Shown in pieces: positions 1-34,256 of a stretch of DNA of 42,272 nucleotides (its first letter is position 1; each line of letters starts with the position of its first letter). The notes under the pieces are model-generated. The model saw only the letters and a program-made list of their open reading frames with translations. It searched no databases and was not told the DNA's origin. The stretch lies in sequence record SRR22947725_833. One strand, written 5' to 3'. A program made the translations under genes and the position numbers.

Positions 1-818
1 TTGAGGCTTACAAAGTAAAACCTCATAATAACTAAACTTAAGCCATAGTATATTCCTGTTTTTAATGACATTTCTGAGTATGTTTGATTATGATTCACGT
101 GAGCATCCTTCGCTACTATTAAGCGGTAGGAATGATGTAATGGATAACTATAGATTAAATCTTCACATGCAGCCCAATTAGTAGAAAAATCAATTGGGTG
201 CTCGTGGTTTTCGATTATAGATCTTTCCCAACCAGTTGCTCCTCCAATTAGCCACTCTGTTTCTATTACTTTCAAAGTAGGGAAGTATGTTGCGGCATAA
301 CCGGCTTTACTTACACCACCTTTTTCAGAAATACCCATGTAAAATATTTTTCTATAAATTGAATCTTTAGGGATCTCTGCATCTACCACATTTAAACTCA
401 TTCCACCTAACGGAAGACCAGGCTTCGATTTTTCTAGATTCCAACATATAAGAAAATTTTCTAACGAGTCCTCGTGAAGTGTTATATCGTCATCCAAATT
501 GATAACCACCTTTATTTTTTTATCAAGGTAACTGTATGCATAATTCCTTTGCAAAACTTGACCCATGTAAGGTGACTTAAGATATATTATATTTAGATCA
601 CTTATATATTTTTCCATGATCTCTGGAGCAAAAGTTCCGCTCTCACAAACAATTATTTGAAACGGTTTTTTTGTTTGTTTCCTTAAACTATCTAGTAGGC
701 GGTCTACATTTCTATGTTGATTTTTTGTTGGACACACTATTGCAATTTCCGAGAAAAAAATTTTCGAACTTTTTGAGATTATTCTCAAATTATTTTTTTC
801 TGATTTAATTACATTCAT
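1..818 (-). CDS. Glycosyltransferase family 2 (GT-A), truncated by the left window edge
   Basis: Not in the ORF track. Manual translation from ATG at 818 gives MNVIKSEK...IAIVCPTKNQHRNVDRLLDSLRKQTKKPFQIIVCESG...QRNYA...VINLDDDI...WLIGGATGW...CEDLIYS, open to position 1, with GT2 N-terminal, DxD and ED motifs. Confidence 0.85.
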   Translation of the reverse strand, partial: MNVIKSEKNNLRIISKSSKIFFSEIAIVCPTKNQHRNVDRLLDSLRKQTKKPFQIIVCESGTFAPEIMEKYISDLNIIYLKSPYMGQVLQRNYAYSYLDKKIKVVINLDDDITLHEDSLENFLICWNLEKSKPGLPLGGMSLNVVDAEIPKDSIYRKIFYMGISEKGGVSKAGYAATYFPTLKVIETEWLIGGATGWERSIIENHEHPIDFSTNWAACEDLIYSYPLHHSYRLIVAKDAHVNHNQTYSEMSLKTGIYYGLSLVIMRFYFVSL

Positions 819-877: not shown

Positions 878-2350
878 CTAGTGATCCATTCCCTGGACAA
901 AATCGACTATAACAGACGGCTTCAAAGGAGTATAATACTCATTAGCAAAAGTAATCGACTTTTCTTTTTCAGGATTTTTTTTCAATGCCGAACCAGAAAT
1001 ATCACATTTTATTAAATCTGCGAGTTGAGAGCTCGAATCCACAATTTTTCGATAAGTAATTGAGTTTGGCACCGGATCATTAACTTTAATACTTTCATCC
1101 CCATTGAAGTATATTGGCCTTAAACCATGAGACATACCATAAAATACAACACTTGACGCTCGGTATAGCAACCAAGTTGCACTTTCAATATCTTTCTCTA
1201 AAGGGTCTGCTGATATCAAAAAATTTTTAGGTAGACTCGTAAGTTTCGGAATATAGCGTTTTATTTTATTTATAGTTATCAAGGGATGAAGACGTAGAAC
1301 AAACTTTACCCAAGGTAAAGTTTTTGCAGTTTCAATTCCAACTTCTGCCATAATACGAACTTCATTTATATCGCCTTCTGGGATTATCAAACACAAATTG
1401 TATTTTAATTTAAAAGGTAAATCTTGATTTACTTTAACATGCTTAACACTCCCAAGCACTGCAATACACTCAGGTTTATACTCTGATTCGTTTCTAAAAA
1501 TTTGTTGCGTAGTCTTTCCCGCCATCATTATTATATCTGGGTCAGCACCATTTCCATAAGTAAAATCTATTGCCCTAGGACCAGGAAATAAAACAGCGTG
1601 GTGGTAACCAATTACCTTTATTGGTTTTGATTGGGAATGTGCGGAAAGCGCATTCATCCTCTCCCAACCATGACCCTCAAATGTTTGCACTAAAACTTTT
1701 GGATTTAACTTTAATAACATAGTATTGACTTGCTCGTGTATCCTGGCATTGGCAATGGCTCTATGGTCAAATTGAGATAAGCTTGCACATTTAAAAAACT
1801 TCCTATTTCCAAGGTTAGGTAAAGAAAATGAAGCCAAAAATAACTTCATAAATATTTTCAGCTCTTCCAGTGGGGACAAATATGCTAAGAGTATAGATGA
1901 ATCTTTATTTTTATAGTTTTTTATAGTTTTTCTTGTTGCCTTACAGTGGTTTATTAAAAGCGTATATGGTTTTAAACCATTATCTCTACAAACAGAACTA
2001 ACATTACCAAAATAAAAATCTGAACTCATCTCTAAATGCGAAACATTAGTCAGATGTGACACGAATAGAACATCACATTTCTTGGGTAAGCTTTGTTTTT
2101 TAATTGCTTTTGGCCAATAAAGAAAACTCTTTAATAATACCGCTATGGATGTAAAAAAGGTAAACCCAAGCCGCCATAATATAGATTTACTTCCGGTCAA
2201 ATCAGGGAATTCATAAGAAGTTTTTGGACTCCCGTTTAGTATGCCTAAAAAACTATTAGCAAGGTGATATTTCTTGTGAGACGCTTTTGCTGTATTAACA
2301 CCCAGAACTATATACTGGAATATTTTTTGTGAACTTTTACCACCTAACAT
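878..2350 (-). CDS. Conserved hypothetical protein, candidate GT-B ulosonic-acid or glycerophosphate-type transferase
   Basis: 490 aa ORF coupled to the kdsB-like gene. The C-terminal half has GYHHA, LRLHP and SSV elements like GT-B sialyl/Kdo/CDP-glycerol transferase-like proteins. Function is inferred from context. Confidence 0.5.
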   Translation of the reverse strand: MLGGKSSQKIFQYIVLGVNTAKASHKKYHLANSFLGILNGSPKTSYEFPDLTGSKSILWRLGFTFFTSIAVLLKSFLYWPKAIKKQSLPKKCDVLFVSHLTNVSHLEMSSDFYFGNVSSVCRDNGLKPYTLLINHCKATRKTIKNYKNKDSSILLAYLSPLEELKIFMKLFLASFSLPNLGNRKFFKCASLSQFDHRAIANARIHEQVNTMLLKLNPKVLVQTFEGHGWERMNALSAHSQSKPIKVIGYHHAVLFPGPRAIDFTYGNGADPDIIMMAGKTTQQIFRNESEYKPECIAVLGSVKHVKVNQDLPFKLKYNLCLIIPEGDINEVRIMAEVGIETAKTLPWVKFVLRLHPLITINKIKRYIPKLTSLPKNFLISADPLEKDIESATWLLYRASSVVFYGMSHGLRPIYFNGDESIKVNDPVPNSITYRKIVDSSSQLADLIKCDISGSALKKNPEKEKSITFANEYYTPLKPSVIVDFVQGMDH

Positions 2351-3135
2351 TAAGTATCTCGTACTCCAAAAGTTGTGGCCAACAGCTCTCGCTGTAATTC
2401 ATTTTTCGAAAGATACTCAATGACAACATCAGCCTCATCAGGTTGATTTACCGATGGAAGGCTGTCTGAAAAAGCTACCGAGTTCAGTAAAAAACCATTT
2501 TCTATAACTCGCATCTGTTCGATTAATTCAAAACTCTCAATATTTGAAATTGGTAACTTAACAAGATCTTTAATAAAGCTTTTTCGGTATGCAATAATCC
2601 CTAATATCTTTCGGATATACCTTTCTTGATTTATAAAATTTGCATGTGAGGGGCCGCGCCGAAAACAATACAGGATTCTATTATCCGAGCTAACAGCACA
2701 CTTGACGAATGAGTGTCTATCTATGTCTTCCTGGCTTTCAACTGGACCTGTAGCATTCCATGCGTCACTTTCAGGATTTTTGGAAATAGCATCTACAACT
2801 CTGTCAATATAGGATGGCAACAATAACGGTTCATCTCCTTGAAGGAGTATAACATGACTGCAGTCAATTTCTTGAACAGCTTCTGCAACCCGGGTAGTAC
2901 CATTTAAATGATAATTACCAGTCATTAAGACTTTACCACCATAATCACGGACAATTTTTGCAATTACCTCGTCACAAGTTGCTACAAAAACATCATCAAG
3001 TTTGGCAGACAGCATTGCTCGTCTTCGCACATGCTCTATCATTGGGTAGCCAAAAAAAGGATGTAGTATTTTTCCTGGAAACCTCACTGAGGCCATATGT
3101 GCTGGAATAACACCCACTACTTTCAAACTATTCAT
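2350..3135 (-). CDS. kdsB: CMP-Kdo synthetase-like cytidylyltransferase
   Basis: VIPAHMASVRFPGKIL, VATCDEVI, NGTTRVAEA, QGDEPLL and ELIEQMRVIENG match the KdsB family. Divergent paralogue (PAR to PAH; VDTPED to VNQPDE). Confidence 0.8.
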   Translation of the reverse strand: MNSLKVVGVIPAHMASVRFPGKILHPFFGYPMIEHVRRRAMLSAKLDDVFVATCDEVIAKIVRDYGGKVLMTGNYHLNGTTRVAEAVQEIDCSHVILLQGDEPLLLPSYIDRVVDAISKNPESDAWNATGPVESQEDIDRHSFVKCAVSSDNRILYCFRRGPSHANFINQERYIRKILGIIAYRKSFIKDLVKLPISNIESFELIEQMRVIENGFLLNSVAFSDSLPSVNQPDEADVVIEYLSKNELQRELLATTFGVRDT

Positions 3136-3890
3136 TGTGGGAACACGCCACAGTCAACATTTATACATTGACCAGTAACAGCTTTATTTTTCTCCGATGC
3201 TAAGAATAAGGCAAGTTGACCAACATCCTCTCCTGAAGGCAAAACTCCCAATGCTGAGTTAGCATCGCAGAATTTTTTTATAAAACTATCAGGCTTACCT
3301 TTAGCAGGTGAATAATCACTTTTTAGGGCCTCCATTAATCCTTCTGTTTTAATTAATACTGGGCAAAGTGCATTAACTCTAATCTTCTGTGGTCCTAATT
3401 CCTTAGCAAGTGATTGTGTTAAACCATTCATTCCAAATTTTGTAGCACAATACATAGCATTATTTGCACTACCTCTTTTACCTGCCAAGCTAGAAATATT
3501 AATTATAGAACCGCCAGTTTTTGTCATTACTTTGGCAGCTGCTTTACAGCCCCAAAAAGCCCCTTTTAAGTTAACATCCATTAGTTGATCAAAAAAACTA
3601 TCATCAATTAAATTAATAGGTTTCCAAGAAGATACCCCAGCATTATTTATCCAAACATTTAGCCCACCAGTAGAATTTATTGCTATCTCTGCTAGTTCTT
3701 GATGAGCTAACTCGTTTCTAACATCCATAGCATGAAAAATTATATCTTTTGTGGTCAAACTTTCGAGATCACCCTTGGTTCTTGCCCCAACAATAACTTT
3801 ATAGCCTGCCTCAAGAAAAGACTCTGTAATTCCTATTCCTATGCCTCGGTTTCCACCTGTTATAACCACACTATTTTTTATTTCAGACAT
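3132..3890 (-). CDS. Short-chain dehydrogenase/reductase (sorbitol-6-phosphate dehydrogenase/FabG-like)
   Basis: TGGNRGIG, NNAG and YCATK catalytic motif. Start moved to the ATG at 3890, which has a GGGAG RBS. Confidence 0.85.
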   Translation of the reverse strand: MSEIKNSVVITGGNRGIGIGITESFLEAGYKVIVGARTKGDLESLTTKDIIFHAMDVRNELAHQELAEIAINSTGGLNVWINNAGVSSWKPINLIDDSFFDQLMDVNLKGAFWGCKAAAKVMTKTGGSIINISSLAGKRGSANNAMYCATKFGMNGLTQSLAKELGPQKIRVNALCPVLIKTEGLMEALKSDYSPAKGKPDSFIKKFCDANSALGVLPSGEDVGQLALFLASEKNKAVTGQCINVDCGVFPQ

Positions 3891-3973
3891 ATTGACTCCC
3901 CTACCAATTTTCTCTGTGACTATAGAATACAATTTCTTAGATTGAACTTTAATAAGACCATTTTGTAATCCTG

Positions 3974-4756
3974 TTATATTGTCATAGCAGAAAAACCACC
4001 ATCTATGACAAGTTCAGATCCAGTTACAAACGACGACGCATTTGAAGCAAGATAAATAACACCCCCAACTAATTCCACCACTTCGCCGTAACGTTCCATA
4101 GGCGTATGCCCTAAGATCGCTTTTTCTCGTTCCTTATTAATAAAGTTCTTTCTATTCCAGTCAGTTGGAAAAAAACCAGGCCTTATAGCATTAACCCTAA
4201 CACCTTTTGTACCCCACTCTCGTCCTAAATTTTGCGTTAAATTTAAAATTCCTGCTTTTGCTATTGAGTAGCTAAACGCTTTCGATAGTGGTGGCCCTGC
4301 AGATGCTGAAGATATATTAATAATGGAGCCAGATCCTTTATGAAGCATATGCTCTCCAAACACCTGGCAACCCAATAGAGTCGATGTTACCTGAGAAGAC
4401 ATTACGGTATTAAATTCTTCAAGTTCAATTTCGAGGAAAGGGGTAGGTGAATTTATACCGGCTCCATTAATTAGGATATCTACATCCCCCAACTGATCAA
4501 CTATCGTTTCACAAGATTTTTGAAATGAAGCCTTATCAGTAGCATCGACTTGAACCGCTATTGCCTCTCCACCACTTTCTCGTTTTATTTCATCAGCAAC
4601 GAAAGAAGCTTTGTCATACCGAATATCCATCACTGCAATTTTACACCCAGCCTTTGAAAGGCCACGCGCCATCTCTCCACAAAGGTAACCACCACCACCC
4701 GTTATCGCTGCTACTTTGCCTCCAAGCCCAAATAAATTTTCAATATAAGAAACCAA
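3974..4756 (-). CDS. Short-chain dehydrogenase/reductase (gluconate 5-dehydrogenase/mannonate oxidoreductase-like)
   Basis: TGGGGYLC, INGAG, YSIAK, PGFFPT and VTGSELVIDGG. Probable TTG start at 4756 behind a GAGGT RBS that overlaps the upstream stop. Confidence 0.85.
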   Translation of the reverse strand: MVSYIENLFGLGGKVAAITGGGGYLCGEMARGLSKAGCKIAVMDIRYDKASFVADEIKRESGGEAIAVQVDATDKASFQKSCETIVDQLGDVDILINGAGINSPTPFLEIELEEFNTVMSSQVTSTLLGCQVFGEHMLHKGSGSIINISSASAGPPLSKAFSYSIAKAGILNLTQNLGREWGTKGVRVNAIRPGFFPTDWNRKNFINKEREKAILGHTPMERYGEVVELVGGVIYLASNASSFVTGSELVIDGGFSAMTI

Positions 4757-4758
4757 AA

Positions 4759-5547
4759 CTACCTCATCGAAGAAATCAAAGATTTCATATCCGCCGCCCA
4801 TTTCCACAACACGAAAAGATCTGAACCTAAAACTATCGCGGTATAACCTTGTGCAAAAGCATCATTAACAGCTTCAGTATTAACATCTGAGATCTGAGTC
4901 ATGCAACTAACTCCATTTCGGGCACATGCCTCCACAACACGCTGACACGCCTCTCTTACTTTTGGGTGGTTAGTGTCTCCCGGGAGGCCCAAAGAGCCAG
5001 ATATATCGTATGGCCCTATCATTACAGCATCAATACCATCCACCTGAAGTAATTCCTCGATATTCTCTACTCCAACAATAGATTCAACCTGAATCATACA
5101 TATACTACTCTCATTCCATGTTTTAATATATGCATCAAAGTCAAATCCATAACCATGAGCTCTATTTACTCCAAAACTTCTCTTACCAATTGGTGGAAAT
5201 TTTTGTAGATTTAAAAGTCCTTGAGCTTCTCTCTTCGTATTAACCATCTGAATAATGGTCCCATCAGCTCCCGCCTCGAGTAACGGCTTTATATAATCAT
5301 TATTATGCGAGACTGGTCGCGGCAGACAAATACTTTCTTCTCCCTGAACAGAGGTAATTATTCTATTAGCATCATCTATACTTATAGTTGTGTGTTCCAT
5401 ATCTATAGCTACAAAATCTAACCCTGCTTTCGCAAAAGTTTCTGCTATCGCCGGTTCACGATAGGAAATCCATCCACCAAAAACCCGTTCTCGTTTTCTC
5501 AGTTTTTCTTTTAATTTTTTTCTTCTTTCAAGACGTTGTTCAAACAT
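4759..5547 (-). CDS. HpcH/HpaI (GarL/RhmA-like) class II pyruvate aldolase
   Basis: FVAIDMEH, PPIGKRSFG, IQVES, MIGPYDISGSLG and GSD motifs. Confidence 0.9.
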   Translation of the reverse strand: MFEQRLERRKKLKEKLRKRERVFGGWISYREPAIAETFAKAGLDFVAIDMEHTTISIDDANRIITSVQGEESICLPRPVSHNNDYIKPLLEAGADGTIIQMVNTKREAQGLLNLQKFPPIGKRSFGVNRAHGYGFDFDAYIKTWNESSICMIQVESIVGVENIEELLQVDGIDAVMIGPYDISGSLGLPGDTNHPKVREACQRVVEACARNGVSCMTQISDVNTEAVNDAFAQGYTAIVLGSDLFVLWKWAADMKSLISSMR

Positions 5548-5968
5548 TCCTAACTCCTAAGATAGCTTCTATTGCTGGGTGAAGATGCAAAAGTCCTTCG
5601 AGATTACCATTCTGATCAATAACTGGTAAGTCCCAAATCTGTTTTAACCCCATTGTAGCTATAGCATCAGATACCGAAGTTAGTCGATTAACAGTAACCG
5701 GATTTTTAACTGCATACTCAATAACATCGTCATTAAACAGTGCTGCAAAAGGCTTTTGCACTCTTGTGAGCATCCGCCGAATATCACCATCCGTTATAAC
5801 CCCTTCAAGTTTTCCAAATCCATCAGTTATACAAATAATTCCAAGCCTTTTTTCATCCATTAGATCAAGCGCCTCCTTTAAAAGCGCTCGGTTAGAAATT
5901 CTTGGGGTGAAACTTAAATCAAGCATAACCGATGCAACATCTAAATTACTATTCTTCACGGTGGACAT
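5540..5968 (-). CDS. Stand-alone CBS-pair protein resembling the C-terminal part of KdsD/KpsF
   Basis: LEGVITDGDIRR, NPVTV and LPVIDQNGNLEGLLHLH. No SIS domain is present in the 142 aa. Confidence 0.85.
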   Translation of the reverse strand: MSTVKNSNLDVASVMLDLSFTPRISNRALLKEALDLMDEKRLGIICITDGFGKLEGVITDGDIRRMLTRVQKPFAALFNDDVIEYAVKNPVTVNRLTSVSDAIATMGLKQIWDLPVIDQNGNLEGLLHLHPAIEAILGVRNV

Positions 5969-6830
5969 TATCTTCTCCCCATTTCTCTTGAAGCTCTCTT
6001 CTCAGATCATGCATTGCCTTAGCTTGAGAAAGAACGACTTCTAAATATTTCAAGTCCAAAACAGTGTTAGCATCAGATAATGCATTAGGTGGGTCATCGT
6101 GGACCTCAACAAAAAGAGCATCAATACCACAGGCCGCAGCTGATCTTGTCAAGTGAGGAATAAACTCTCTTTGGCCTCCAGAGATATTCCCCATAGATGT
6201 TGGCATCTGAATCGAGTGGGTTGCGTCAAAACAAACAGGATAACCTGTTTCCGCCATAATTGGTAAAGCACGCATATCGTTAACCAACATGTTATACCCA
6301 AAAAATGTCCCTCTATCTGTTAACAAAATTTCTGAACTACCAAATGACTCTAGCTTACGGCACGAATTTTTCATATTCCAAGGACTCATAAATTGACCTT
6401 TTTTCAAGTGGACAGGTTTTCCAGTCTCAGCAGCCGCTCTAAGAATGGATGTCTGCCGACAGAGATACGCTGGAACTTGGATAAGATCGCAAACCTCTCC
6501 TGTCGCAGCTCCCCAGCTAGGATCTGAAAAATCTGAAGTTACAGGAATACCATGCTCACCCCTAACTTCAGAAAGAACCTTTAAACCCTCCTCAATACCT
6601 AGGCCGTGAAAGCTAGTTGGTGAAGAACGGCAATCTTTGTCATAGCAAGCCTTAAATATCCATTTCACTCCCACCTTATAGCAAACTCTTCCTATAAGTT
6701 CAGCCATTTTCATGGAATGGTCCCTACTCTCAATAGCGCAAGGTCCAGCTATTAAAACTAGATCACCATCGCTGCCTATTAAAATGCTATTTCCTTGTGG
6801 ACCATTAATAATTAATTTTTTCGCTCTCAT
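5949..6830 (-). CDS. kdsA: KDO8P synthase family protein (divergent paralogue, probably metal-dependent)
   Basis: IAGPCAIES, QVPAYLCRQT, KKGQFMSP, RGTFFGY, FDATHSIQMP, GGQREF and EVHDDPPNALSD. The KANRS motif is replaced by KDCRS. Confidence 0.92.
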   Translation of the reverse strand: MRAKKLIINGPQGNSILIGSDGDLVLIAGPCAIESRDHSMKMAELIGRVCYKVGVKWIFKACYDKDCRSSPTSFHGLGIEEGLKVLSEVRGEHGIPVTSDFSDPSWGAATGEVCDLIQVPAYLCRQTSILRAAAETGKPVHLKKGQFMSPWNMKNSCRKLESFGSSEILLTDRGTFFGYNMLVNDMRALPIMAETGYPVCFDATHSIQMPTSMGNISGGQREFIPHLTRSAAACGIDALFVEVHDDPPNALSDANTVLDLKYLEVVLSQAKAMHDLRRELQEKWGEDNVHREE

Positions 6831-6935: not shown

Positions 6936-8564
6936 TCACACGGCTATATCTTTTTCATCAATATTTTCCTTAACCCAACGAGTTAACTCTTCCCTGCCAA
7001 CAACCACTGGAATGTCGGCTTGCATAGGGTTTACTTTTGAAATCAAGCCAGATGGATCATAGTAGCAACATTTCTTTCCCATATTATAAGCTATTATAGC
7101 AGTTGATGTAAAAGGCATACTAATAACTAAATCAACTTTCTCAATAAGGCGGTGGGCCGAAATGCCTGGGTCTATACTAACAGTGTTTTTATACTTTTTA
7201 GAAAAGCCTTCTTCAATTTTTTTTAAGTGCTTTTCCTGTCCAGATCCCAAACGTTTTTTTCGTTTTCTTATCAACATCACGTCATAAATATTAGAGATTT
7301 CTCCTAAGTCATTAAGAAATCTTTTAAGTAAATCCTCATTAATATATTCATACAATTGAGGAGTTATTGATCTTAAATAATGACGTTTCGGTTGAATGTC
7401 AAAAGCAGCAATAGATCGTCTGGGGACCTCTATCAACTCATCATTACTATCAAAATAAGGTATATCCGAAACAATATGAATAATAGGATTATTCTTAACA
7501 AAACTTTTAACAAATCGTTTCTGGCCTTCACCCCAAACCACATAATTATCCCAGCTCATCATATTCCAATGGCTTAATTCTCTCTTCTCAGCTTCAGAAG
7601 GTTGCACAGGGGAGTTGTTAGTTGAATAAAAATATAAAAATGTTTTTATTCCGACTTCATCAAGAACATAGGTCCACATAGGTCTATATACAAAATTTTC
7701 ATGGGCAAACCAGAATTCTCTGGCTGACAAACTAGTGCCATGCATTTTAGCTATATATGCCATGCAAGACTCAGATAAGATTAGTGCAGACCACCACCGC
7801 CCCATAAACATATGGAAAAAAGAAACGACAGAAGCTTTAATACCCCAATAGACAAATAAAAACCATTTTTTTAAACTTGTAAAACGGGGAAAAATACCTG
7901 ACGTAGAGACAACTTTTAGACCATTATAAGTCACATTCGGGGAAACTTTACATTGATGACTTATTTGTTTGATATCCTTATCTCTCTCAGCCCAGTCAAC
8001 GTACCATGTAACTATATTTCTTTGACCCTTATAGTTAAGGTTCGGAATATGTGATTCTACCAAGCCGAGGAAAACGGCGGTCGGTTCCGTATCTAATATG
8101 CCTTTTCTTAATGGAAAAAATTTTATTGCACCTAATACAATAGCCTTAACACCATATAGCCAAAGTAAAACTACATATAAACCCCAACCAATATTAGAGC
8201 ATAGTCTATTAACTGGTATCCCATTATTAATTAATATTTTTTGTAAAAATGGTGGGATACAATGAATAGGTATTGAACTTCCACCAAGAGCTCCATGGAT
8301 AGACCTATGTAAGCTCACCTCTCCAATTCTCTTTATTAAATACTGACGTATAATCAAAGCGGACTTATCACTAGTCGATATAAAAAATAATTTTGATGTT
8401 TTATAACAAAACGCTTTTGGATTGTATTTAGCCATCTCCTCTTTAACTCTAAAAACCAAAGAAAGGTTATTTTGCTCCTTAAGCAATCTATACCCTCTCA
8501 TCGTACTAATTGTTCTAGTACGGTGAAACCTATAAAAAAAAAAATTAAAAAAATTAAAAAACAC
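6936..8564 (-). CDS. Polysaccharide biosynthesis PFTS-motif protein (putative transferase)
   Basis: C-terminal VISMPFTSTAIIA and YYDPSG, internal YRPMWTY and YFYSTN. The start is uncertain (GTG at 8564 directly before poly-T tracts). Confidence 0.75.
   Translation of the reverse strand: MFFNFFNFFFYRFHRTRTISTMRGYRLLKEQNNLSLVFRVKEEMAKYNPKAFCYKTSKLFFISTSDKSALIIRQYLIKRIGEVSLHRSIHGALGGSSIPIHCIPPFLQKILINNGIPVNRLCSNIGWGLYVVLLWLYGVKAIVLGAIKFFPLRKGILDTEPTAVFLGLVESHIPNLNYKGQRNIVTWYVDWAERDKDIKQISHQCKVSPNVTYNGLKVVSTSGIFPRFTSLKKWFLFVYWGIKASVVSFFHMFMGRWWSALILSESCMAYIAKMHGTSLSAREFWFAHENFVYRPMWTYVLDEVGIKTFLYFYSTNNSPVQPSEAEKRELSHWNMMSWDNYVVWGEGQKRFVKSFVKNNPIIHIVSDIPYFDSNDELIEVPRRSIAAFDIQPKRHYLRSITPQLYEYINEDLLKRFLNDLGEISNIYDVMLIRKRKKRLGSGQEKHLKKIEEGFSKKYKNTVSIDPGISAHRLIEKVDLVISMPFTSTAIIAYNMGKKCCYYDPSGLISKVNPMQADIPVVVGREELTRWVKENIDEKDIAV
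8534..8561. repeat. Clustered homopolymer tracts A11, A7 and A6 (poly-T on the coding strand)
   Basis: A11 at 8534-8544, A7 at 8547-8553 and A6 at 8556-8561, each separated by tt. Confidence 0.85.
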
Positions 8565-8751: not shown

Positions 8752-10059
8752 TCATCTTTCATCATTTACTTGGTATTTCATTTTATGAATAGAGATGATT
8801 TCATGTTTCGTTAGCGTATCTATTATAGGATATAATTTCCAAATTGGGACAGCACACAAATCTGCTATTTCTAATAAGGACGTTTGTCCATCTGAATAAG
8901 AAATTACATCCATCAATAGTTTTTGGTTTTCAGTGTGTTTATTCTTTCCTAATGTAGAATAAAGCCCTCTACGACTCATTTGAGGTTCTCCGTAGGTCCG
9001 AACCAGAGGAAAATTATTTTTTTCTATGGCTTCAACGGCTCTAAGGATAGAGACGTATCCACCGTATAGCCCAGAAGGAGTAACCACATTATTTAAATCA
9101 TCCAACGAAGTATGATATTCTGGGTATTCCCCATATTTTGTTCGCATTATTGAGGCTACTGGGAGATCAATTAAGGGCGCACAATATTGTCGTTCATCGC
9201 TACCCCGATCATTCCACCCGAACGTACGGAAGTCTTCATCTATGAATTTTAGTACGTGTTTGGAAATATTATCACTAATCGTATTTCCCTTCCTTGAAGG
9301 TAAATACGAATACGCGCGATCGTCTCCAACGCATGTAATATTAAACCCTGCGTAAACCTTCTCCTTCATATCTTTTAAATTCTTACTCAGATACACGATT
9401 GATCCAATTGTTTCTGGAACAAATACTATCCTGTAAGTATACTCACGATCTTTCATTTCTGAAAAATATTTAGCTAAAAACGTAAGTACTGAAATACCTG
9501 AGATTTCATTATTACCCATTGATGGATGACAAATGTAAGTAGAAAGGAATATTTCCTTACTGCTTCGTCCTTTTAAAATTAATTCACCATAGTTCAAAAT
9601 TCCATCAAAATGTTCAGCGTCTATAAAAACTTCATACTCGCCATCTTCAAGACAGCTACGTTGATCATCCCTTATACAAAAGCCCCACCTCTCTTCATAA
9701 TAAGAAGTAACATATGGAATCGCGTCTGGCTGTTCAGGTAAAGAATACAAATTTTTCTGGAGTTCTTCCAAAGAAAAAAAGCCATGAACTGGCAAACTAT
9801 ATCCTAAAATATGAAGATTATTTTTTTTAAAATCACATATTTTTTTTCCATCAGGCGTCTTAATCCACGCATCTTTCACTAACCATTCTCTCGGCACAAC
9901 CCAGTCAAATGCTTTTGTACCAGTTTTTACTTCATTAACTCTAAGTTCTGGTATATGTTTTCTGATAAGTTCTAAGGTTTGCCTAACACCCTCACCCGTA
10001 ATACTTCTATTTAAGGGCCAGAGCTCTTTCGCAAACTCATGTATACTTTCACCTATCAA
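8752..10059 (-). CDS. DUF4910/DUF2172 aminopeptidase-like protein with C-terminal winged helix (Cj1295-like)
   Basis: LWPLNRSITGEGVRQTL, FDWVVPREW, PDAIPYVTSYY, STYICHPSMGNNEISG, PETIGSI, GSDERQYC, YPEYHTSLD and EPQMSRRGLY. TTG start with GAGG RBS. Confidence 0.92.
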   Translation of the reverse strand: MIGESIHEFAKELWPLNRSITGEGVRQTLELIRKHIPELRVNEVKTGTKAFDWVVPREWLVKDAWIKTPDGKKICDFKKNNLHILGYSLPVHGFFSLEELQKNLYSLPEQPDAIPYVTSYYEERWGFCIRDDQRSCLEDGEYEVFIDAEHFDGILNYGELILKGRSSKEIFLSTYICHPSMGNNEISGISVLTFLAKYFSEMKDREYTYRIVFVPETIGSIVYLSKNLKDMKEKVYAGFNITCVGDDRAYSYLPSRKGNTISDNISKHVLKFIDEDFRTFGWNDRGSDERQYCAPLIDLPVASIMRTKYGEYPEYHTSLDDLNNVVTPSGLYGGYVSILRAVEAIEKNNFPLVRTYGEPQMSRRGLYSTLGKNKHTENQKLLMDVISYSDGQTSLLEIADLCAVPIWKLYPIIDTLTKHEIISIHKMKYQVNDER

Positions 10060-10096
10060 ATTGTCCTCATTTATTTTTTACCTATTAATCAAATAG

Positions 10097-10882
10097 TTAG
10101 TCTATAGAGTACCTATTCCCCTGAGTCAGAATAAAAGGGAATACTTTAATAGTTTTTTTTAGAAATCTAGAGACATCACCACAACTATGTGAACAAATTT
10201 GCCCTCGACCTAAATTTATTTTCTTTGTTATACCTTCCCGTAAGCACATCGTATGAAAAGACTGAAAACTTGGTGTTGCACTCATATCATCTAAATGTCG
10301 TCCAGTGTATACCATTTTTTTTTCAATATTTTCTTCATTAATTAATATTGTTCCCGACAATTCAAAATCAGTTCGGTAGGTGACGCCTATTTCTCTCTCC
10401 ACCCAATGTAAAAAGGTTGAACCACTATCAAAGTTCAAATTACAAATAAGGGCATCTTCCTCAAATAATCGCTCCCAAATACTATTTGGGCCATAGCATA
10501 TATTTCCTACATTCTTAACGATCCGGTATGCTTTTTCTCCAAAACCTACAACTGACAACATTGGGTCTAATGATCTGATACCAACTCCACGCTCTATCAG
10601 TCGGTTAGCAATAGTAGACATTCCTTTAGCTGGTAAACTGGGGTCAAAAACTTTTTCAAACTTTTCAGAGCCAAATGAATATGTGAATGCTGGAACTATT
10701 AATGCACCGGTTGGACCCAGCACATCCATAAATGCCGATAAGAAAATATCAGCCAGCTCATTTGAGTTTGAACAGTTTTTTACCTGCCCAAAAAAAGCTA
10801 AATTAGAGTGACAAAATACGACTCCACCTTCCACAACTCCAGCATCTTTTAAGGCAACGCCAATATCAGTACTACTAATCAT
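10097..10882 (-). CDS. AAC(3)-family (Antibiotic_NAT) N-acyltransferase
   Basis: VFCHSNL, GALIVPAFTYSF, RSLDPMLS, TFLHWVE and YR motifs. Confidence 0.88.
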   Translation of the reverse strand: MISSTDIGVALKDAGVVEGGVVFCHSNLAFFGQVKNCSNSNELADIFLSAFMDVLGPTGALIVPAFTYSFGSEKFEKVFDPSLPAKGMSTIANRLIERGVGIRSLDPMLSVVGFGEKAYRIVKNVGNICYGPNSIWERLFEEDALICNLNFDSGSTFLHWVEREIGVTYRTDFELSGTILINEENIEKKMVYTGRHLDDMSATPSFQSFHTMCLREGITKKINLGRGQICSHSCGDVSRFLKKTIKVFPFILTQGNRYSID

Positions 10883-11136
10883 TAATCAGTTGTCCGTTCA
10901 GTTATTATCTCTATAATACCAAAAACTGATTGCAAGCGCCTGTCTTGAAAAGATTCAGCATCAAACGCAAACCCAAAACTCTCTTCAGCATCAAGTAATA
11001 AGTTCATTAAACTCATAGAATCTAACCTTTGTGAATCGAATAGATTAGTCAGTAGTTTTTCATCTTCACTTTTTTTTGAAAACTCAAAATCAATCTTACT
11101 AATATATTCAAAAATCCAATTTTTTACTTCTGACAT
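10882..11136 (-). CDS. Acyl carrier protein
   Basis: 84 aa acidic protein with the LDSMSLMNL phosphopantetheine site and EESFG. Confidence 0.85.
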   Translation of the reverse strand: MSEVKNWIFEYISKIDFEFSKKSEDEKLLTNLFDSQRLDSMSLMNLLLDAEESFGFAFDAESFQDRRLQSVFGIIEIITERTTD

Positions 11137-11150
11137 AGCAAAACCGTTGA

Positions 11151-11813
11151 TTAATTAATTATAGCAACTGCACGGACTGGAGAACCATCAGCATCTTGAA
11201 TTTTAATCGGGAACGCACTCAACGTAAACTCTGTATCAGGAACCTCGGAAAGGTTGCATAAATACTCCAAAATAGCTACATCGTTTTCAAGAAATATAGT
11301 ATGATTAGGTGAGTCTTTTTCACTATTTCTGCCGTTTGAAGGATTATCTGGCATTGGACTATCAAAACCTACAAGTACAACTCCACATGAAACTAGGTAT
11401 TTACACGCTTCCTCACTTAAAAAAGGATGGTCTGAATAATAACCGAGACTAGGGAGCCGCCTCTCCCAATCAAATCGAAATAATATTCTCTTTGGATAAT
11501 TACATGGTAGTTTTTTTTGTAACATTTCAAGAGTAATCTCTGTTTTGTCTGGTAGCTCAGTAAAGTCTAGCACAAGCGCATTTCCATAATAGATATTAAT
11601 ATCTGTATACTCAATCGTTTTCCCATTTTTTAAAAAGTGTCTAGGCGCATCAACATGGGTTCCTGTATGTGTACCTAAAGTTATCTTCCGAGTCTCTCTG
11701 CCTTCGACCTCGAACCTGCCAAGTTGAGTTATCGAAACAAAAGGATGCCAAGGCACAGGAAATGTCATCATCCCTTCACATATTTTCATACTTAGATCAA
11801 TTATTTTTGTCAT
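11151..11813 (-). CDS. Cyclase family (kynurenine formamidase-like) metal-dependent hydrolase
   Basis: IDLS, HTGTHVDAPRHF, GFD, LEYLCNL and DGSPVRAVA. Alternative TTG start at 11819. Confidence 0.9.
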   Translation of the reverse strand: MTKIIDLSMKICEGMMTFPVPWHPFVSITQLGRFEVEGRETRKITLGTHTGTHVDAPRHFLKNGKTIEYTDINIYYGNALVLDFTELPDKTEITLEMLQKKLPCNYPKRILFRFDWERRLPSLGYYSDHPFLSEEACKYLVSCGVVLVGFDSPMPDNPSNGRNSEKDSPNHTIFLENDVAILEYLCNLSEVPDTEFTLSAFPIKIQDADGSPVRAVAIIN

Positions 11814-12606
11814 TTTCAATCAACTCAAAAAAAGGGAGGGCTTCGCCTGAAAATAGAGCAATTATTAATCTTTGTCCATTAACATTTAAAATGAAACGAT
11901 CAATTTGATTTAAACCTGGGTAACGTCCATCATATTCAACTGGTAAATTTCTAGCCATAAACGCTAGAGCCGTGCATCCAGCATTGTCTATTTTACTATT
12001 AGGTCCCCAGTCCTTATGATATACCTTAGGCGCTAATATAATATGAGCTGACAAGGCTGGAATCGGTGTCAATAAAGACCAAATCTCGGTATTAGATTTT
12101 TCAAACCTTAAGCTAGACAATAAACCAGTTATATCTTTACCACTATCAACCAATATAATTGCTATGAAAAGGCCAGCACTTTCTTCTAATTTCAAAGGTG
12201 ACCAAAGTATGTGCATCTCTAACAATGAATCATAAAATATGAATATTTTTCTTTTTAAAGATCTTTCTATTTTTTTAATGGTCATTGCTGAAATTGGTAA
12301 ATCTTCAACTGTTTTTTGCTCCCACCCATTCAACAATTTATCACTTCTAAATATAGGAAGTATATTTGAATTTTCAGGGTTAAGCTGACTCCCGTGAAAA
12401 AGTAATTCAATCGACATACCAGAATCATTTTTAAGAAAGGTAATATCGTGGTTACTTACATAGTGATTTAAAAAAGGTTTCTTTGATAGATGGTTGCTCA
12501 ATTGTCTTTCTTCAAATTGAGTTTTATATCCAAATTCTTTTAATCTTTTTTTACTCACTGTCAGGTTAGTACTATTAATAGCTATATGACTGAGACCTAA
12601 GATCAC
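11797..12606 (-). CDS. VOC/glyoxalase-like protein
   Basis: N-terminal GLSHIAI, internal SIELL and C-terminal FELIE fit vicinal-oxygen-chelate metal ligands. Otherwise divergent. Confidence 0.55.
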   Translation of the reverse strand: MILGLSHIAINSTNLTVSKKRLKEFGYKTQFEERQLSNHLSKKPFLNHYVSNHDITFLKNDSGMSIELLFHGSQLNPENSNILPIFRSDKLLNGWEQKTVEDLPISAMTIKKIERSLKRKIFIFYDSLLEMHILWSPLKLEESAGLFIAIILVDSGKDITGLLSSLRFEKSNTEIWSLLTPIPALSAHIILAPKVYHKDWGPNSKIDNAGCTALAFMARNLPVEYDGRYPGLNQIDRFILNVNGQRLIIALFSGEALPFFELIENDKNN

Positions 12607-12607
12607 T

Positions 12608-14059
12608 TTATAGTCTATCTTTTGCTATATTTAGTTTTAGCTTTTTTCTTTTAATTTTACCTGTAGTAGTAACTGGTATCATTTCTACAAAGGCAACATG
12701 ATCAATAGAAATTCGACCTTTTTTATTTAAAATTTTATTACAATAAGCCTTAAATAAGTCAGCATTACGGTTGTCTATTTCACCTTGAACAACTAAAACT
12801 AAACTCTCACCCAATATTTCATCTAAAAAACTTGATATACAAAAGTTTGTTTGTCCTGGTAAATTTTTTATTTCTTTCTCTATACTAATAGGGTTTATAT
12901 TTACACCACCCCGAACAATTAATTCATCTGAGCGCCCATTTATTTTCAATCTCCCTTGCGAATTAATAAAAACCAAATCGCTAGTTTGGAAGGAACTCCT
13001 AAGCTCATAAAACTCTCCATCCTCTATCCAACCCAAACATCTATAAGGACTGTCTATCAATGCTAAGCCAGAGTCATCTATCGTAACTTCTATGCCTGGA
13101 AGCAACGTGCCAGTATAATCAAAGCAAAATTCTTCTAATTTATCTACAGATACATACAGTAACTCCGACAAACCGTATGATTGTAAAGGCGGCAGTCCAT
13201 ATTCTTTTAGAAATAAATGGGCTTTATCAGGTGCTAACGAACCGGTTCCTACAAATATATTTTTTAATAAAGGAGGTAACCTTTTATCAGTTCTGTCGAG
13301 CTTCATTATCATTATTAACATAGAGGGCGATAGCCAGAGGGAAGTAATATTATATTCATTCACTGTCTTCCAGAAATTTAGTGCCATCTTAGTGTCAAAA
13401 GCCTTATCAATTACAACAGAGGCGGTGGCAGTTAGTGGAGCAAATATTCCATTAAATATTCCGGCCATATAGTGCATGGGCATTACATTGAGAAAAGTAT
13501 CCGCACCTGAAATTCCTGTCATTTCATTAAAAGAATATGCACATTTCAAATAACTTTCAGCGGAGTGAATGATACCTTTTGGTTTACCAGTAGTTCCACT
13601 AGTAAATGTAACAGTAAGTGGACTGTTCTCTGGCACTTCGATTGGCTTATTTACTGGCAGTTGCTCAATTTTTTTCCAGTCAAAATTAATTATTTCATGA
13701 ACGCTAGTCTCATTTAAGTTTTGTCTACTACAATCTATAATCTTGGCTTTAGGTGAAAATTTTATAATTTCGAAAATTTCTTGATCTTTGATTGTTGGTG
13801 GCAAAACATACGTACAAAAACCGCCGCGCATACAACTTAGTAAAATTACTGCTGACTCTAACGTATTATCACATATGCTAATAATTTTCTTATCTTCACC
13901 AAGATCTAAATTTAACAAAAATCCACAAAATTTGTCGATAAGGGTAATCAGACGAGCCCCTGACAAATATGTTATCTCCGGCTCATAGGTTCGATCAGTT
14001 ATGATATTTTTTTTACAGTCTAAAATATTATAAAAAAATTGATCAATCAGTTTTGACAT
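12608..14059 (-). CDS. AMP-dependent synthetase/ligase (acyl-CoA or acyl-ACP ligase)
   Basis: TFTSGTTGKPKG, SYGLSE, FQTSD, GRSDELIVRGGVNINP and TTTGKI. Confidence 0.92.
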   Translation of the reverse strand: MSKLIDQFFYNILDCKKNIITDRTYEPEITYLSGARLITLIDKFCGFLLNLDLGEDKKIISICDNTLESAVILLSCMRGGFCTYVLPPTIKDQEIFEIIKFSPKAKIIDCSRQNLNETSVHEIINFDWKKIEQLPVNKPIEVPENSPLTVTFTSGTTGKPKGIIHSAESYLKCAYSFNEMTGISGADTFLNVMPMHYMAGIFNGIFAPLTATASVVIDKAFDTKMALNFWKTVNEYNITSLWLSPSMLIMIMKLDRTDKRLPPLLKNIFVGTGSLAPDKAHLFLKEYGLPPLQSYGLSELLYVSVDKLEEFCFDYTGTLLPGIEVTIDDSGLALIDSPYRCLGWIEDGEFYELRSSFQTSDLVFINSQGRLKINGRSDELIVRGGVNINPISIEKEIKNLPGQTNFCISSFLDEILGESLVLVVQGEIDNRNADLFKAYCNKILNKKGRISIDHVAFVEMIPVTTTGKIKRKKLKLNIAKDRL

Positions 14060-14080
14060 TGGAAACCAACCAAAGAATCA

Positions 14081-15142: not shown

Positions 15143-15207
15143 TATTGTTACCCTAATTGTCCAGCCTAGGCCAACCCCGGACTTAAAACAGGTTATAATC
15201 AAAAAGC

Positions 15208-30496: not shown

Positions 30497-31105
30497 TTGT
30501 CGTATAGTTTAGAAAAATTTTTAAGAATGAAAAACATAACTAATCCAAATGCAATAGATGACATTAAACTAATTATATTTGATGTTGATGGTGTGCTGAC
30601 AGATGGAAAAAAAACATACGACACCAAAGGACAAAAAATATCTAAATCTTTTGGTGATCTGGATTTCACAGCAATAAAAATATTACAATCTTTTGGTTTT
30701 AAAGTTGTTTGGCTCTCTGGAGACGAAGTTGTTAATGAACCGTTAGCCGTCATCAAGAGTATACCTTTTTATTGTACTCGGCTTTCTGATGGTAGCAATC
30801 AAGATAAAATTTTACTGCTTCCTAGTATATTAAATTTTTTTTCTCTTTCAAAAGAGCAAGTTTGGTTTGTTGGAGATGATATATTCGACTTAAATATAAT
30901 TAGAAATGTTGGCTTTTCCTCCTGCCCAGCAAATGCCTCTTTCTTGGTCAAGCGAGAAGTAGATTTAGTTCACAATAGTAAATCCGGAGAAAGCGTGGCC
31001 TCAGAAATATTAGAACTACTATTTGACCACCATCAATTCCGTGATGTTAATATACCTAGCATATTAGAAAATCAAAACAAAGAGGGTCAAAGGAACAAAA
31101 AATAG
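30497..31105 (+). CDS. kdsC: KdsC-like HAD phosphatase (ulosonate-phosphate phosphatase)
   Basis: IFDVDGVLTDG, KSFGDLD, LSG, DK, VGDDIFD and CPANA. Alternative ATG at 30527. Confidence 0.8.
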   Translation: MSYSLEKFLRMKNITNPNAIDDIKLIIFDVDGVLTDGKKTYDTKGQKISKSFGDLDFTAIKILQSFGFKVVWLSGDEVVNEPLAVIKSIPFYCTRLSDGSNQDKILLLPSILNFFSLSKEQVWFVGDDIFDLNIIRNVGFSSCPANASFLVKREVDLVHNSKSGESVASEILELLFDHHQFRDVNIPSILENQNKEGQRNKK

Positions 31106-33320: not shown

Positions 33321-33333
33321 GGCTTTCTTATTT

Positions 33334-34254: not shown

Positions 34255-34256
34255 CT

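Follow-up and report, generated by a model that had tools for sequence, protein, structure and literature searches.

Within a 42,272-nt stretch of DNA (sequence record SRR22947725_833; hereafter the window), homologues of KdsA and KdsB are encoded in one cassette together with a CBS-domain protein, an HpcH/HpaI-type aldolase and two SDRs (SDR1 and SDR2). The locus raises the question whether ordinary Kdo or another ulosonic acid is made, and what the aldolase and the two SDRs (together referred to as the trio) contribute. On balance, we favour a horizontally mobile pathway, complete in itself, whose product would be a CMP-activated 3-deoxy-oct-2-ulosonic acid, probably not Kdo, for use in a surface polysaccharide.

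Gene organization

3..818, minus strand: GT2 glycosyltransferase (Pfam Glycos_transf_2), truncated at the window end
878..2350, minus strand: 490-aa GT-B-fold protein (structure-model matches); 1-nt overlap with KdsB
2350..3135, minus strand: variant KdsB, CMP-ulosonate synthetase (CTP_transf_3, 138 bits); 4-nt overlap with SDR2
3132..3932, minus strand: SDR2, classical SDR of the acetoin-reductase / glucose-dehydrogenase type, NADP-type signature
3974..4807 (longest ORF), minus strand: SDR1, classical SDR of the gluconate-5-dehydrogenase / mannonate-oxidoreductase type, NAD-type signature
4759..5547, minus strand: HpcH/HpaI class II 2-oxoacid aldolase (Pfam HpcH_HpaI, 101 bits, cut-off 25); 8-nt overlap with the CBS gene
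5540..5968, minus strand: stand-alone CBS pair (Pfam CBS, 52 bits); 20-nt overlap with KdsA
5949..6830, minus strand: variant KdsA, KDO8P-synthase family, metal-type, distinct subfamily (Pfam DAHP_synth_1, 215 bits)
6936..8564, minus strand: PFTS-motif polysaccharide protein (TIGR04417), upstream neighbour of KdsA
30497..31105, plus strand: KdsC/Kdn-9-P-phosphatase-like HAD protein, weak (TIGR01670, below cut-off)

The six genes from KdsA to KdsB are co-directional, mostly overlapping minus-strand ORFs with the bounds given in an earlier sequence-only reading, and the six assignments made there hold in Pfam. Homologues of SDR1 are approximately 260 amino acids long and thus shorter than the longest ORF, so that its true start is probably located near 4760. 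The unit is longer than six genes, with the GT-B and GT2 genes following KdsB and the PFTS-motif gene preceding KdsA. The sources annotate the two variants as plain KdsA and KdsB, names which would hide a separate pathway.

The best solved relative of the aldolase is YfaU (2vws, E 1.2e-33). His52, Arg77, Glu155 and Asp181, invariant in 43 sequences, align with YfaU blocks, and the scores for the named equivalogs HpaI, RhmA and GarL were all far below the cut-offs. Both SDRs (adh_short, 160 and 167 bits) contain the Gly-rich motif, NNAG and the Ser-Tyr-Lys triad of classical SDRs; no equivalog-level assignment was obtained for either of them with NCBIfam. SDR1 has the conserved Asp at the end of beta-2 that marks the NAD type and stays below the cut-off of NF006132 (255 versus 281 bits). 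Among solved proteins that match it over the full length, gluconate 5-dehydrogenases are the closest; the top structure row, 4wuv, is a partial match without a passing stretch. In SDR2, the NADP-type signature consists of the conserved motifs TGGN[RK]GIG and G[AS]R.

The CBS gene adjoins that of the variant KdsA in 78 of 80 loci. Its product (142 aa) matches TIGR00393 only at positions 165–268 of the 268-position KpsF model. The SIS catalytic domain of KpsF/KdsD is absent from this protein and from all 41 window ORFs scanned, in agreement with the sequence-only reading. The CBS pair is best read as a KpsF remnant left after loss of the SIS domain, homologous to the C-terminal half of KpsF/KdsD, and is probably a regulator of the KdsA step. 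The lack of an SIS domain in the window would suit an alternative in which the trio supplies KdsA with its aldose phosphate, by synthesis or by conversion, e.g. of ribose 5-phosphate to arabinose 5-phosphate via redox chemistry at C2 in place of KdsD. The NAD/NADP SDR pair would be suited to such an epimerisation. However, pyruvate aldolases of the HpcH family give 2-oxo acids, not aldose phosphates.

A distinct KdsA subfamily

The variant KdsA subfamily forms a single full-length cluster at 50% identity (484 bits; next cluster, 288 bits). The window protein scored above the equivalog cut-offs of TIGR01362 (328.9 versus 314) and NF003543 (335.7 versus 242). Most PEP-side blocks are conserved, and GPCAIE aligns with the Aquifex enzyme. 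C31, H205, E242 and D253 do not vary among 64 sequences and match the Cys-His-Glu-Asp metal site given in PMC3052366 for the metal-dependent class of KDO8P synthases. The NCBIfam scores, the retained metal ligands and the PEP-side blocks all speak for a diverged but normal KdsA, which would provide ordinary CMP-Kdo for a Kdo-containing capsule or O-antigen in the manner of kpsF/kpsU, with the SDRs and the aldolase serving another sugar or substituent.

A different picture is obtained on the substrate side, where the motif KSSFDKANRSS of ordinary enzymes (compared with solved 3fs2/1fwn) is replaced by K-A-C-Y-D-K-D-C-R-S-S. The KANRS motif presumably belongs to the arabinose-5-phosphate site of KdsA, with the Asn touching a substrate hydroxyl. 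All 120 homologues of the variant have the D-C of K-D-C-R-S. Among the best 150 cluster representatives, 108 carried the motif, as KANR (103), KDCR (three, all of the variant subfamily), KGNR (one) or KSNR (one), and a KANRS-type motif was unmatched in 42. In the other KDO8P synthase clusters of this sample, KANR is thus nearly universal; its replacement in the variant offers a natural experiment on how substrates are chosen in the DAH7PS/KDO8PS family. In comparison to five ordinary KdsA proteins, 11 subfamily-specific changes were found, including S62C, A66D, N67C, H102S, Q106W, S176F and G211T, some of them in blocks aligning with substrate-side segments. The fixed D-C and these further changes argue against an ordinary KdsA; the substrate may differ from arabinose 5-phosphate, ribose 5-phosphate being a guess.

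Distribution and carrier genomes

Many marine and freshwater bacteria possess the variant KdsA. Per species, the cassette is rare, yet it is scattered over many phyla; among 400 further alphaproteobacterial genomes, sampled evenly, no protein exceeded 51% identity to the variant (the unpublished G095 and G295 among them are counted as non-carriers only). Of 56 related loci in which the sequence continues for 5 kb or more on the downstream side of the KdsA-like gene, 35, from many phyla, encode HpcH, two SDRs and KdsB, and this shared order shows that the association of the genes is not due to chance. Minimal cassettes composed of KdsC, KdsA, CBS and KdsB without the trio occur as well.

In 15 of 55 carrier genomes, no KpsF/KdsD match reached or approached the cut-off; in 12 of these, the variant was also the sole KdsA found, many of the KdsD-less carrier genomes being single-cell or metagenome assemblies. 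WaaA was sought in 11 of these 12 genomes and found in none, while LpxC was present in eight of the 11. Such genomes speak against an ordinary Kdo supply, although arabinose 5-phosphate could be provided by an enzyme other than the KpsF/KdsD type searched. Conversely, the SAR11 single-cell genome G043 encodes KdsD, WaaA and LpxC with the variant as its only KdsA, which could supply real Kdo there unless the genome is incomplete. In seven loci, the variant KdsA and the CBS protein are accompanied by a near-ordinary KdsB (PAR, TGTDR, GVD), so that the primary product may be similar to Kdo.

Five Devosia-type genomes and two of Prochlorococcus belong to the 12. KdsD was missing in all five Devosia-type genomes and the four Devosia-titled ones carry the trio, as would be expected if the trio replaced KdsD; the fifth (G023) has no trio in the stretch examined. 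The two Prochlorococcus loci (L067 and L070) argue against such a replacement, since they encode KdsC, the variant KdsA, CBS and KdsB, with neither trio nor isomerase.

KdsB and its coupling to the trio

The window KdsB, whose best solved relative is KpsU (1gq9), scored below the cut-offs of TIGR00466 (200.6 versus 255), NF009905 (188.7 versus 193) and NF003952 (123.5 versus 155.2). The deviations pointed out in the sequence-only reading, PAH for PAR and VNQP for VDTP, are visible in the alignment to 1gq9. His13, Val17 and Asn230 replace Arg, Thr and Asp of ordinary KdsB, with Arg18 and Lys22 kept. According to PMC3149649, the CTP loop of KdsB comprises Arg10, Thr14, Arg15 and Lys19, of which Arg10 and Thr14 (positions 13 and 17 in the window protein) contact the CTP triphosphate, and two conserved active-site Asp residues bind Mg-A. 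The first of these is kept (QGDEP), whereas Asn replaces the second in all 66 relatives of the window protein; all 50 ordinary KdsB compared have Asp there. The window KdsB therefore deviates from CMP-Kdo synthetases in profile scores, CTP-loop residues and the second Mg-A ligand, which again weighs against ordinary Kdo.

Four KdsB columns (residues 13, 17, 177 and 221) separate 36 sequences with the trio from eight without. Residue 13 is His with the trio and Arg without it, residue 17 is Val, Ile or Leu versus Thr or Ser, and at position 221 an acidic residue is lost where the trio is present. No separating column was found in the variant KdsA (44 versus eight sequences) or the CBS protein (37 versus six). 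In a quick tree with a weak backbone, at least three Arg/His switches are needed. In a separate metagenome set, SDR2 was encoded just upstream of 13 of 14 His-type KdsB (the 14th has only 723 nt upstream), and the trio accompanied none of ten Arg-type KdsB. Exceptions are L158, a distant clade (37% identity) with SDR1-SDR2 upstream of an Arg-type KdsB, and L142 and L146, where a His-type KdsB is accompanied by SDR2 only; L159, the neighbour of L158 (38%), has the same SDR pair, with an unreadable state at residue 13. In addition, two Arg-type sequences have Val at residue 17. In the split cassettes L032, L042 and L055, the trio remains with KdsB.

The covariation with KdsB ties the trio to this pathway, contrary to a role for another sugar or substituent, and we consider an ordinary CMP-Kdo supply unlikely. 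Trio-linked columns in KdsB and none in KdsA or CBS place the action of the trio after KdsA, not before. The earlier suggestion of an aldose phosphate made for KdsA by the trio is not sustained by these columns, nor by the trio-less minimal cassettes and the split cassettes, and we regard such a role of the trio as very improbable. Of the non-Kdo pathway proposed earlier, this part is thus not supported, whereas a non-Kdo product is the likelier one in view of the KdsA motif, KdsB and the genomes in which KdsD, an ordinary KdsA and WaaA went undetected. The second option offered at that time, redox remodelling of the product, would fit the pair of an NAD-type and an NADP-type SDR. The Arg/His switch in KdsB represents a clean, testable case of co-adaptation between enzyme and pathway.

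HpcH might also be a second condensing enzyme, leading to a C11 dicarboxylic ulosonic acid or, with the octulosonate as nucleophile, to a C3-branched acid. SDR1 would convert the terminal alcohol to an aldehyde, HpcH would add pyruvate and SDR2 would reduce the new keto group, so that NAD-dependent oxidation, aldol addition and NADPH-dependent reduction would each proceed in the usual direction of the enzyme; the loss of the acidic residue 221 from KdsB would be in line with this. In KdsA-free metagenome cassettes, an HpcH gene adjoins a KdsB-like gene and is accompanied by genes for SIS_2, a phosphatase, GFO and a 2-hydroxyacid dehydrogenase, so that the condensation is probably carried out by HpcH there. 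However, the window HpcH is only 33–39% identical to the HpcH proteins of these cassettes, and the closest full-length solved relatives of SDR1 use secondary alcohols. Furthermore, we know of no eleven-carbon dicarboxylic or C3-branched ulosonic acid of this kind, and literature searches for an extended or branched acid of this type returned none. A second condensation thus appears quite unlikely.

Proposed pathway and related systems

In the favoured pathway to a CMP-activated octulosonic acid, KdsA would join PEP and a pentose 5-phosphate of non-KdsD origin, and a KdsC-type phosphatase would remove the phosphate. The free acid would then be remodelled by SDR1 (NAD-dependent oxidation), the HpcH aldolase and SDR2 (NADPH-dependent reduction), an order within the trio that we infer, with C–C bond chemistry of HpcH either at the 4-hydroxy-2-oxo end or at the newly made carbonyl; to our knowledge, no aldolase role after KdsA is established anywhere. 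KdsB, with its altered CTP loop and metal site, would form the CMP-sugar, to be transferred by the GT-B protein. More specifically, but only tentatively, KdsA may use ribose 5-phosphate or another non-arabinose substrate and the trio may give an undescribed acid, either a Kdo diastereomer or a higher ulosonic acid, extended by pyruvate or branched at C3.

Like the LPS Kdo pathway (KdsD-KdsA-KdsC-KdsB), the cassette includes a PEP-dependent synthase of the KDO8PS family, a CTP_transf_3 cytidylyltransferase and, in 14 other loci, a clear KdsC. It differs in the missing SIS isomerase, KDCRS for KANRS, the inserted aldolase and SDRs, the His/Val CTP loop and Asn metal ligand of KdsB, and its occurrence in genomes without detected WaaA or KdsD. 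With kpsF/kpsU, the CMP-Kdo supply of group 2 capsules, it shares dedicated Kdo-type gene copies within a polysaccharide locus, KpsU as the best solved relative of KdsB and the likeness of the CBS protein to the C-terminus of KpsF. KpsF, however, retains the SIS domain and makes arabinose 5-phosphate, whereas the cassette has the CBS half only and its own KdsA variant.

Tailoring of a free octulosonic acid before CMP activation, with oxidation first, has a precedent in the Kdo8N pathway of Shewanella, in which KdnB oxidises free Kdo at C8, KdnA transaminates and KdsB activates. There, an iron alcohol dehydrogenase and an aminotransferase are used, without an aldolase or a variant KdsA. In the IdnD-IdnO system (L-idonate / 5-ketogluconate / gluconate), C5 is inverted via a keto intermediate. 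NAD-dependent oxidation followed by reduction with an NADPH-dependent SDR thus inverts one centre of a sugar acid, and gluconate 5-dehydrogenases are closest to SDR1 among solved proteins matched over the full length; in contrast to the cassette, this system is catabolic, acts on six-carbon acids and lacks an aldolase.

The undescribed acid considered above would be displayed on the cells of SAR11, SAR116, Prochlorococcus, Leptospira and others. Should the cassette make a new ulosonic acid, some of the ocean's most abundant bacteria, as well as a Leptospira O-antigen locus, would have it as a surface determinant, with a bearing on phage receptors, grazing and serotyping.

Transferases, phosphatase and neighbouring genes

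The 490-aa protein, whose family follows KdsB in 34 loci, has no Pfam match. Its AlphaFold model (pLDDT 92) gave a GT-B match by Foldseek (E 7e-11) and VIA Z-scores of 16.2 to 4nes (rmsd 4.9 over 311 residues), 12.7 to WaaA (2xci) and 12.4 to a polysialyltransferase; R-x-H-P is invariant in the family. It is presumed to be the CMP-sugar transferase. The GT2 family of the last gene occurs in 26 loci. The PFTS-motif protein (TIGR04417, 226 bits versus a cut-off of 100), present in 19 loci, is weakly GT-B-like (pLDDT 84; Foldseek matches to GT-B enzymes at TM 0.3–0.5).

A candidate for the missing phosphatase is the HAD protein at 30497..31105, encoded 24 kb from the cassette on the opposite strand and scoring 87.2 bits against the TIGR01670 cut-off of 106.95. 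Elsewhere, the same cassette region contains methyltransferases, a PhyH-type dioxygenase, an O-acetyltransferase or a radical-SAM enzyme, and the cassette thus has a modular tailoring slot.

PseB, PseC and PseI are also encoded in the window, so that pseudaminic acid, another CMP-activated ulosonic acid, is assigned to the same locus. Unlike the cassette, that pathway uses a NeuB-type synthase on a hexose derived from a UDP-sugar and has its own cytidylyltransferase domain (20769–22811). NeuB-family genes are located close to the cassette in 20 loci.

Gene content of the locus

Almost all genes of the 42-kb window are encoded on the minus strand and form a single polysaccharide locus. The six-gene set proposed in the sequence-only reading was confirmed at its exact position, 2350-6830 on the minus strand, with overlaps of 20, 8 and 4 nt along the six genes and a further 1 nt into the following gene.

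Genes of the cassette and related genes of the window
6936-8564, minus: PFTS-motif protein, upstream of the variant KdsA gene
5949-6830, minus: variant KdsA (KDO8P-synthase family), first in transcription order
5540-5968, minus: CBS pair, 142 aa, second
4759-5547, minus: HpcH/HpaI aldolase, third
3974-4807, minus: SDR1, classical SDR, fourth
3132-3932, minus: SDR2, classical SDR, fifth
2350-3135, minus: KdsB-like cytidylyltransferase, sixth
878-2350, minus: 490-aa protein, no Pfam match, downstream of the KdsB-like gene
3-818, minus: GT2, downstream of the 490-aa protein gene
30497-31105, plus: weak KdsC-like phosphatase (87 bits, cut-off 107)

A GT-B fold is predicted for the 490-aa protein (model pLDDT 92), in whose family R-x-H-P is invariant; fold searches with this protein and the PFTS-motif protein gave nothing beyond generic GT-B likeness. 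The single KdsC-like gene of the window is oriented against the locus, whose genes otherwise share one direction; it is situated in a gap between them and overlaps with an ORF of 130 aa on the minus strand. A pseudaminic acid pathway is also encoded in the window (PseB, PseC and PseI above their cut-offs), and two unusual fusion proteins are encoded in its part of the locus: one of 680 aa joins a CTP_transf_3 domain to a class-III aminotransferase (20769-22811), the other, of 696 aa, joins an RmlD-like reductase domain to PseC (24271-26361). The genes at 8752-15202, encoding a DUF4910/DUF2172 aminopeptidase-like protein, an AAC(3)-like N-acetyltransferase, a cyclase/arylformamidase-like protein, an AMP-binding enzyme, an HMGL-like lyase and, as carrier protein candidate, an 84-aa ORF product, are probably an acyl-substituent module. 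Those at 31761-36016 (double nucleotidyltransferase of 519 aa, xylose-isomerase-like TIM-barrel protein, ribulose-phosphate 3-epimerase homologue and zinc alcohol dehydrogenase) may represent a pentitol- or pentose-phosphate activation pathway; this set was not found conserved beside the variant KdsA elsewhere.

The variant KdsA subfamily

The variant KdsA passes the NCBIfam KdsA cut-offs, that of TIGR01362 narrowly (328.9 versus 314), and is approximately 50% identical to the solved enzymes. In KdsA, the arabinose 5-phosphate site is lined by the KANRS motif, which to our knowledge has been described as absolutely conserved. Where the solved enzymes have KSSFDKANRSS, the variant has KACYDKDCRSS, and Asp-Cys occupies both motif positions in all 120 best homologues (71-100% identity). 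Among 1.84 billion cluster representatives searched, the subfamily is one full-length cluster (484 bits), followed by the next cluster at 288 bits. The 150 best representatives comprise 103 with KANR, three with KDCR (all of this subfamily) and one each with KGNR and KSNR; the motif was unmatched in 42, many of which are fragments. Compared to five ordinary metal-type KdsA of carrier genomes, eleven differences are fixed (S62C, A66D, N67C, R75H, H102S, Q106W, F122Y, E172D, S176F, G211T and D274H). The metal ligands, with roles as given in passages of PMC3052366, are retained.

We infer the substrate and the product of the cassette. Ribose 5-phosphate as substrate of the variant KdsA is a guess; erythrose 4-phosphate was set aside, since the loop carrying the motif is as long as that of KDO8PS, the DAH7PS loop being shorter. 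A complex prediction for the variant KdsA and the CBS protein, run without alignments, scored 0.00 (mark 0.34) and is evidence neither for nor against a complex. No fusion of the two was seen, as there was none among proteins of 514-2000 aa and all 120 best near-length homologues have 283-312 aa. A phage search returned no subfamily member, the closest phage KdsA being less than 42% identical, the cyanophage S-SCSM2R gene included. Literature searches gave no description of the cassette, of the subfamily, of a KdsA with its motif or of ulosonic acid synthesis involving an HpcH aldolase. Passages of a Leptospira genomics paper (PMC4758666) and of a Pontimonas paper (PMC6106888) mention Kdo genes but not the variant.

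Distribution and core of the cassette

A scan with one genome per species yielded 141 stretches encoding a relative of the variant KdsA. The best 80 of these (67-83% identity) belong to SAR116, SAR11, Prochlorococcus, Leptospira (including L. noguchii), Devosia, Legionella, Bacteroidota, Nitrospirota, Verrucomicrobiota, one actinobacterium and others. Identity this high across phyla indicates that the cassette was spread by horizontal transfer. Among 400 additional genomes of Alphaproteobacteria, sampled evenly and with the unpublished G095 and G295 counted as non-carriers, no match exceeded 51% identity.

The CBS gene follows the variant KdsA gene in 78 of 80 loci. Of the loci with 5 kb or more of sequence downstream of the latter (n = 56), 35 encode the aldolase, both SDRs (together termed the trio) and KdsB, ten encode KdsB without the trio, eight have neither within the stretch examined and three (L006, L007 and L055) have partial content. 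Variable genes are located between the CBS and KdsB genes or immediately upstream of the variant KdsA gene and encode a NanM-like O-methyltransferase (23 loci), an FkbM methyltransferase with a PhyH-like dioxygenase, an O-acetyltransferase or a radical-SAM protein; a clear KdsC is encoded inside the cassette in 14 loci. From this survey, the core of the cassette consists of variant KdsA-CBS and KdsB; a slot for tailoring genes varies between loci, and the trio is one of its occupants.

Two adjacent families of approximately 262 and 278 aa, without Pfam or NCBIfam match, are encoded immediately upstream of the variant KdsA in 17-18 loci, both trio-containing and trio-free (e.g. L024:8360-9963 and L021:1233-2866), and are absent from the window. 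In L. noguchii, the SDR1 and SDR2 genes of the cassette are separated by a PhyH fragment and a transposase of the IS3 family (L026:14329-15714); the flanking genes appear intact.

Covariation of the trio with KdsB

Alignment columns were compared between trio cassettes and close trio-free cassettes. The trio had been proposed to make the aldose phosphate used by KdsA. This finds no support, as no column of the variant KdsA separates cassettes with (n = 44) and without the trio (n = 8), while four columns of KdsB do (n = 36 and 8, respectively). The CBS protein has no separating column either (n = 37 and 6).

KdsB residues separating cassettes with and without the trio
Residue 13: His with trio; Arg without
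Residue 17: Val/Ile/Leu with trio; Thr/Ser (one Arg) without
Residue 177: Ile/Val with trio; Met/Leu without
Residue 221: non-acidic with trio; Glu/Asp without

On a quick maximum-likelihood tree with a weak backbone, presence of the trio requires five changes, at least three of which are forced by well-supported branches. One clear switch on this tree is in Prochlorococcus, where L025 and L071, with His at residue 13 (His-type), are sister to the Arg-type L067 and L070.

As an independent test, metagenome contigs were scanned with the KdsB alignment. SDR2 is encoded directly upstream of 13 of 14 His-type KdsB, the 14th having only 723 nt upstream; SDR1 is also present at ten and HpcH at nine of the 14, and L142 and L146 have SDR2 without SDR1 or HpcH. 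None of the three trio genes was found at any of ten Arg-type KdsB (at least 41% identity), seven of which are directly preceded by the CBS or variant KdsA gene. Exceptions are Val at residue 17 in two Arg-type proteins and L158 (37% identity) of a distant clade, where SDR1-SDR2 precede an Arg-type KdsB; the same pair is present in L159 (38% identity), with residue 13 unreadable.

According to PMC3149649, Arg10 and Thr14 of solved KdsB bind the CTP triphosphate, and a pair of conserved Asp coordinates one of two magnesium ions. Residues 13 and 17 are the equivalents of Arg10 and Thr14. The second metal-binding Asp is replaced by Asn in 66 of 66 sequences of the window KdsB and its relatives, compared to Asp in all 50 ordinary KdsB. 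In the simplest reading, the variant KdsA would catalyze one and the same reaction whether the trio is present or absent, and the trio would alter what KdsB must accept.

Occurrence without KdsD and WaaA

The KpsF/KdsD family search covered 55 carrier genomes. A match above the cut-off was found in 38, a match slightly below it or truncated at a contig end in two, and CBS-type partial matches only in 15. In 12 of these 15 (G003, G005, G017, G021, G023, G033, G034, G036, G042, G049, G051 and G052), which include four Devosia and one related genome, one actinobacterium and single-cell genomes of two Prochlorococcus and two Bacteroidota, the variant is the only KdsA found. WaaA was found in none of the 11 searched (all but G017), and LpxC in eight of them. 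The Prochlorococcus loci L067 and L070 encode KdsC, variant KdsA, CBS and KdsB, surrounded by TPR proteins and without an isomerase. This suggests that the cassette works where neither the usual arabinose 5-phosphate source nor the usual Kdo user was found, many of the assemblies being incomplete; another arabinose 5-phosphate route in these carriers is possible. In G043 (SAR11), KdsD, WaaA and LpxC are present and the variant is the only KdsA, so either the genome may be incomplete or the variant may be able to serve LPS. Taken together, several independent lines at the sequence level support the earlier claim of a non-Kdo ulosonic acid, short of proof.

LpxC was found in the Devosia-type genomes G003, G023, G033, G034 and G042, and WaaA, KpsF/KdsD and an ordinary KdsA were not; this lineage may have a lipid A core without Kdo.

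Possible functions of the trio

Among SDRs, an Asp marks NAD preference and basic residues mark NADP preference. By this rule, SDR1, which carries the Asp and is closest, among solved proteins matching over the full length, to gluconate 5-dehydrogenases, would be NAD-dependent, and SDR2, which resembles acetoin reductases and carries the basic residues, NADP-dependent. An NAD-type oxidase and an NADPH-type reductase would suit inversion of one alcohol via a ketone. In HpcH, the His, Arg, Glu and Asp required for catalysis in class II pyruvate aldolases are retained; the enzyme could invert C4 through cleavage followed by renewed addition, or add pyruvate to a new carbonyl.

A second cassette type on metagenome contigs has HpcH adjoining a KdsB-like cytidylyltransferase, and KdsA is absent.

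KdsA-free HpcH cassettes
L189:6243-11217
L194:4789-10554
L178:317-8103
L158:3047-11285 (additionally transaldolase/FSA)
L159:5414-11374

These cassettes also encode a SIS_2 isomerase, an IMPase- or HAD-type phosphatase, a GFO/IDH/MocA oxidoreductase and a D-2-hydroxyacid dehydrogenase, and resemble a pathway in which formation of a CMP-ulosonic acid depends on the aldolase. Condensation is probably catalyzed by the aldolase in these cassettes, so that the HpcH of the window may likewise have a synthetic role.
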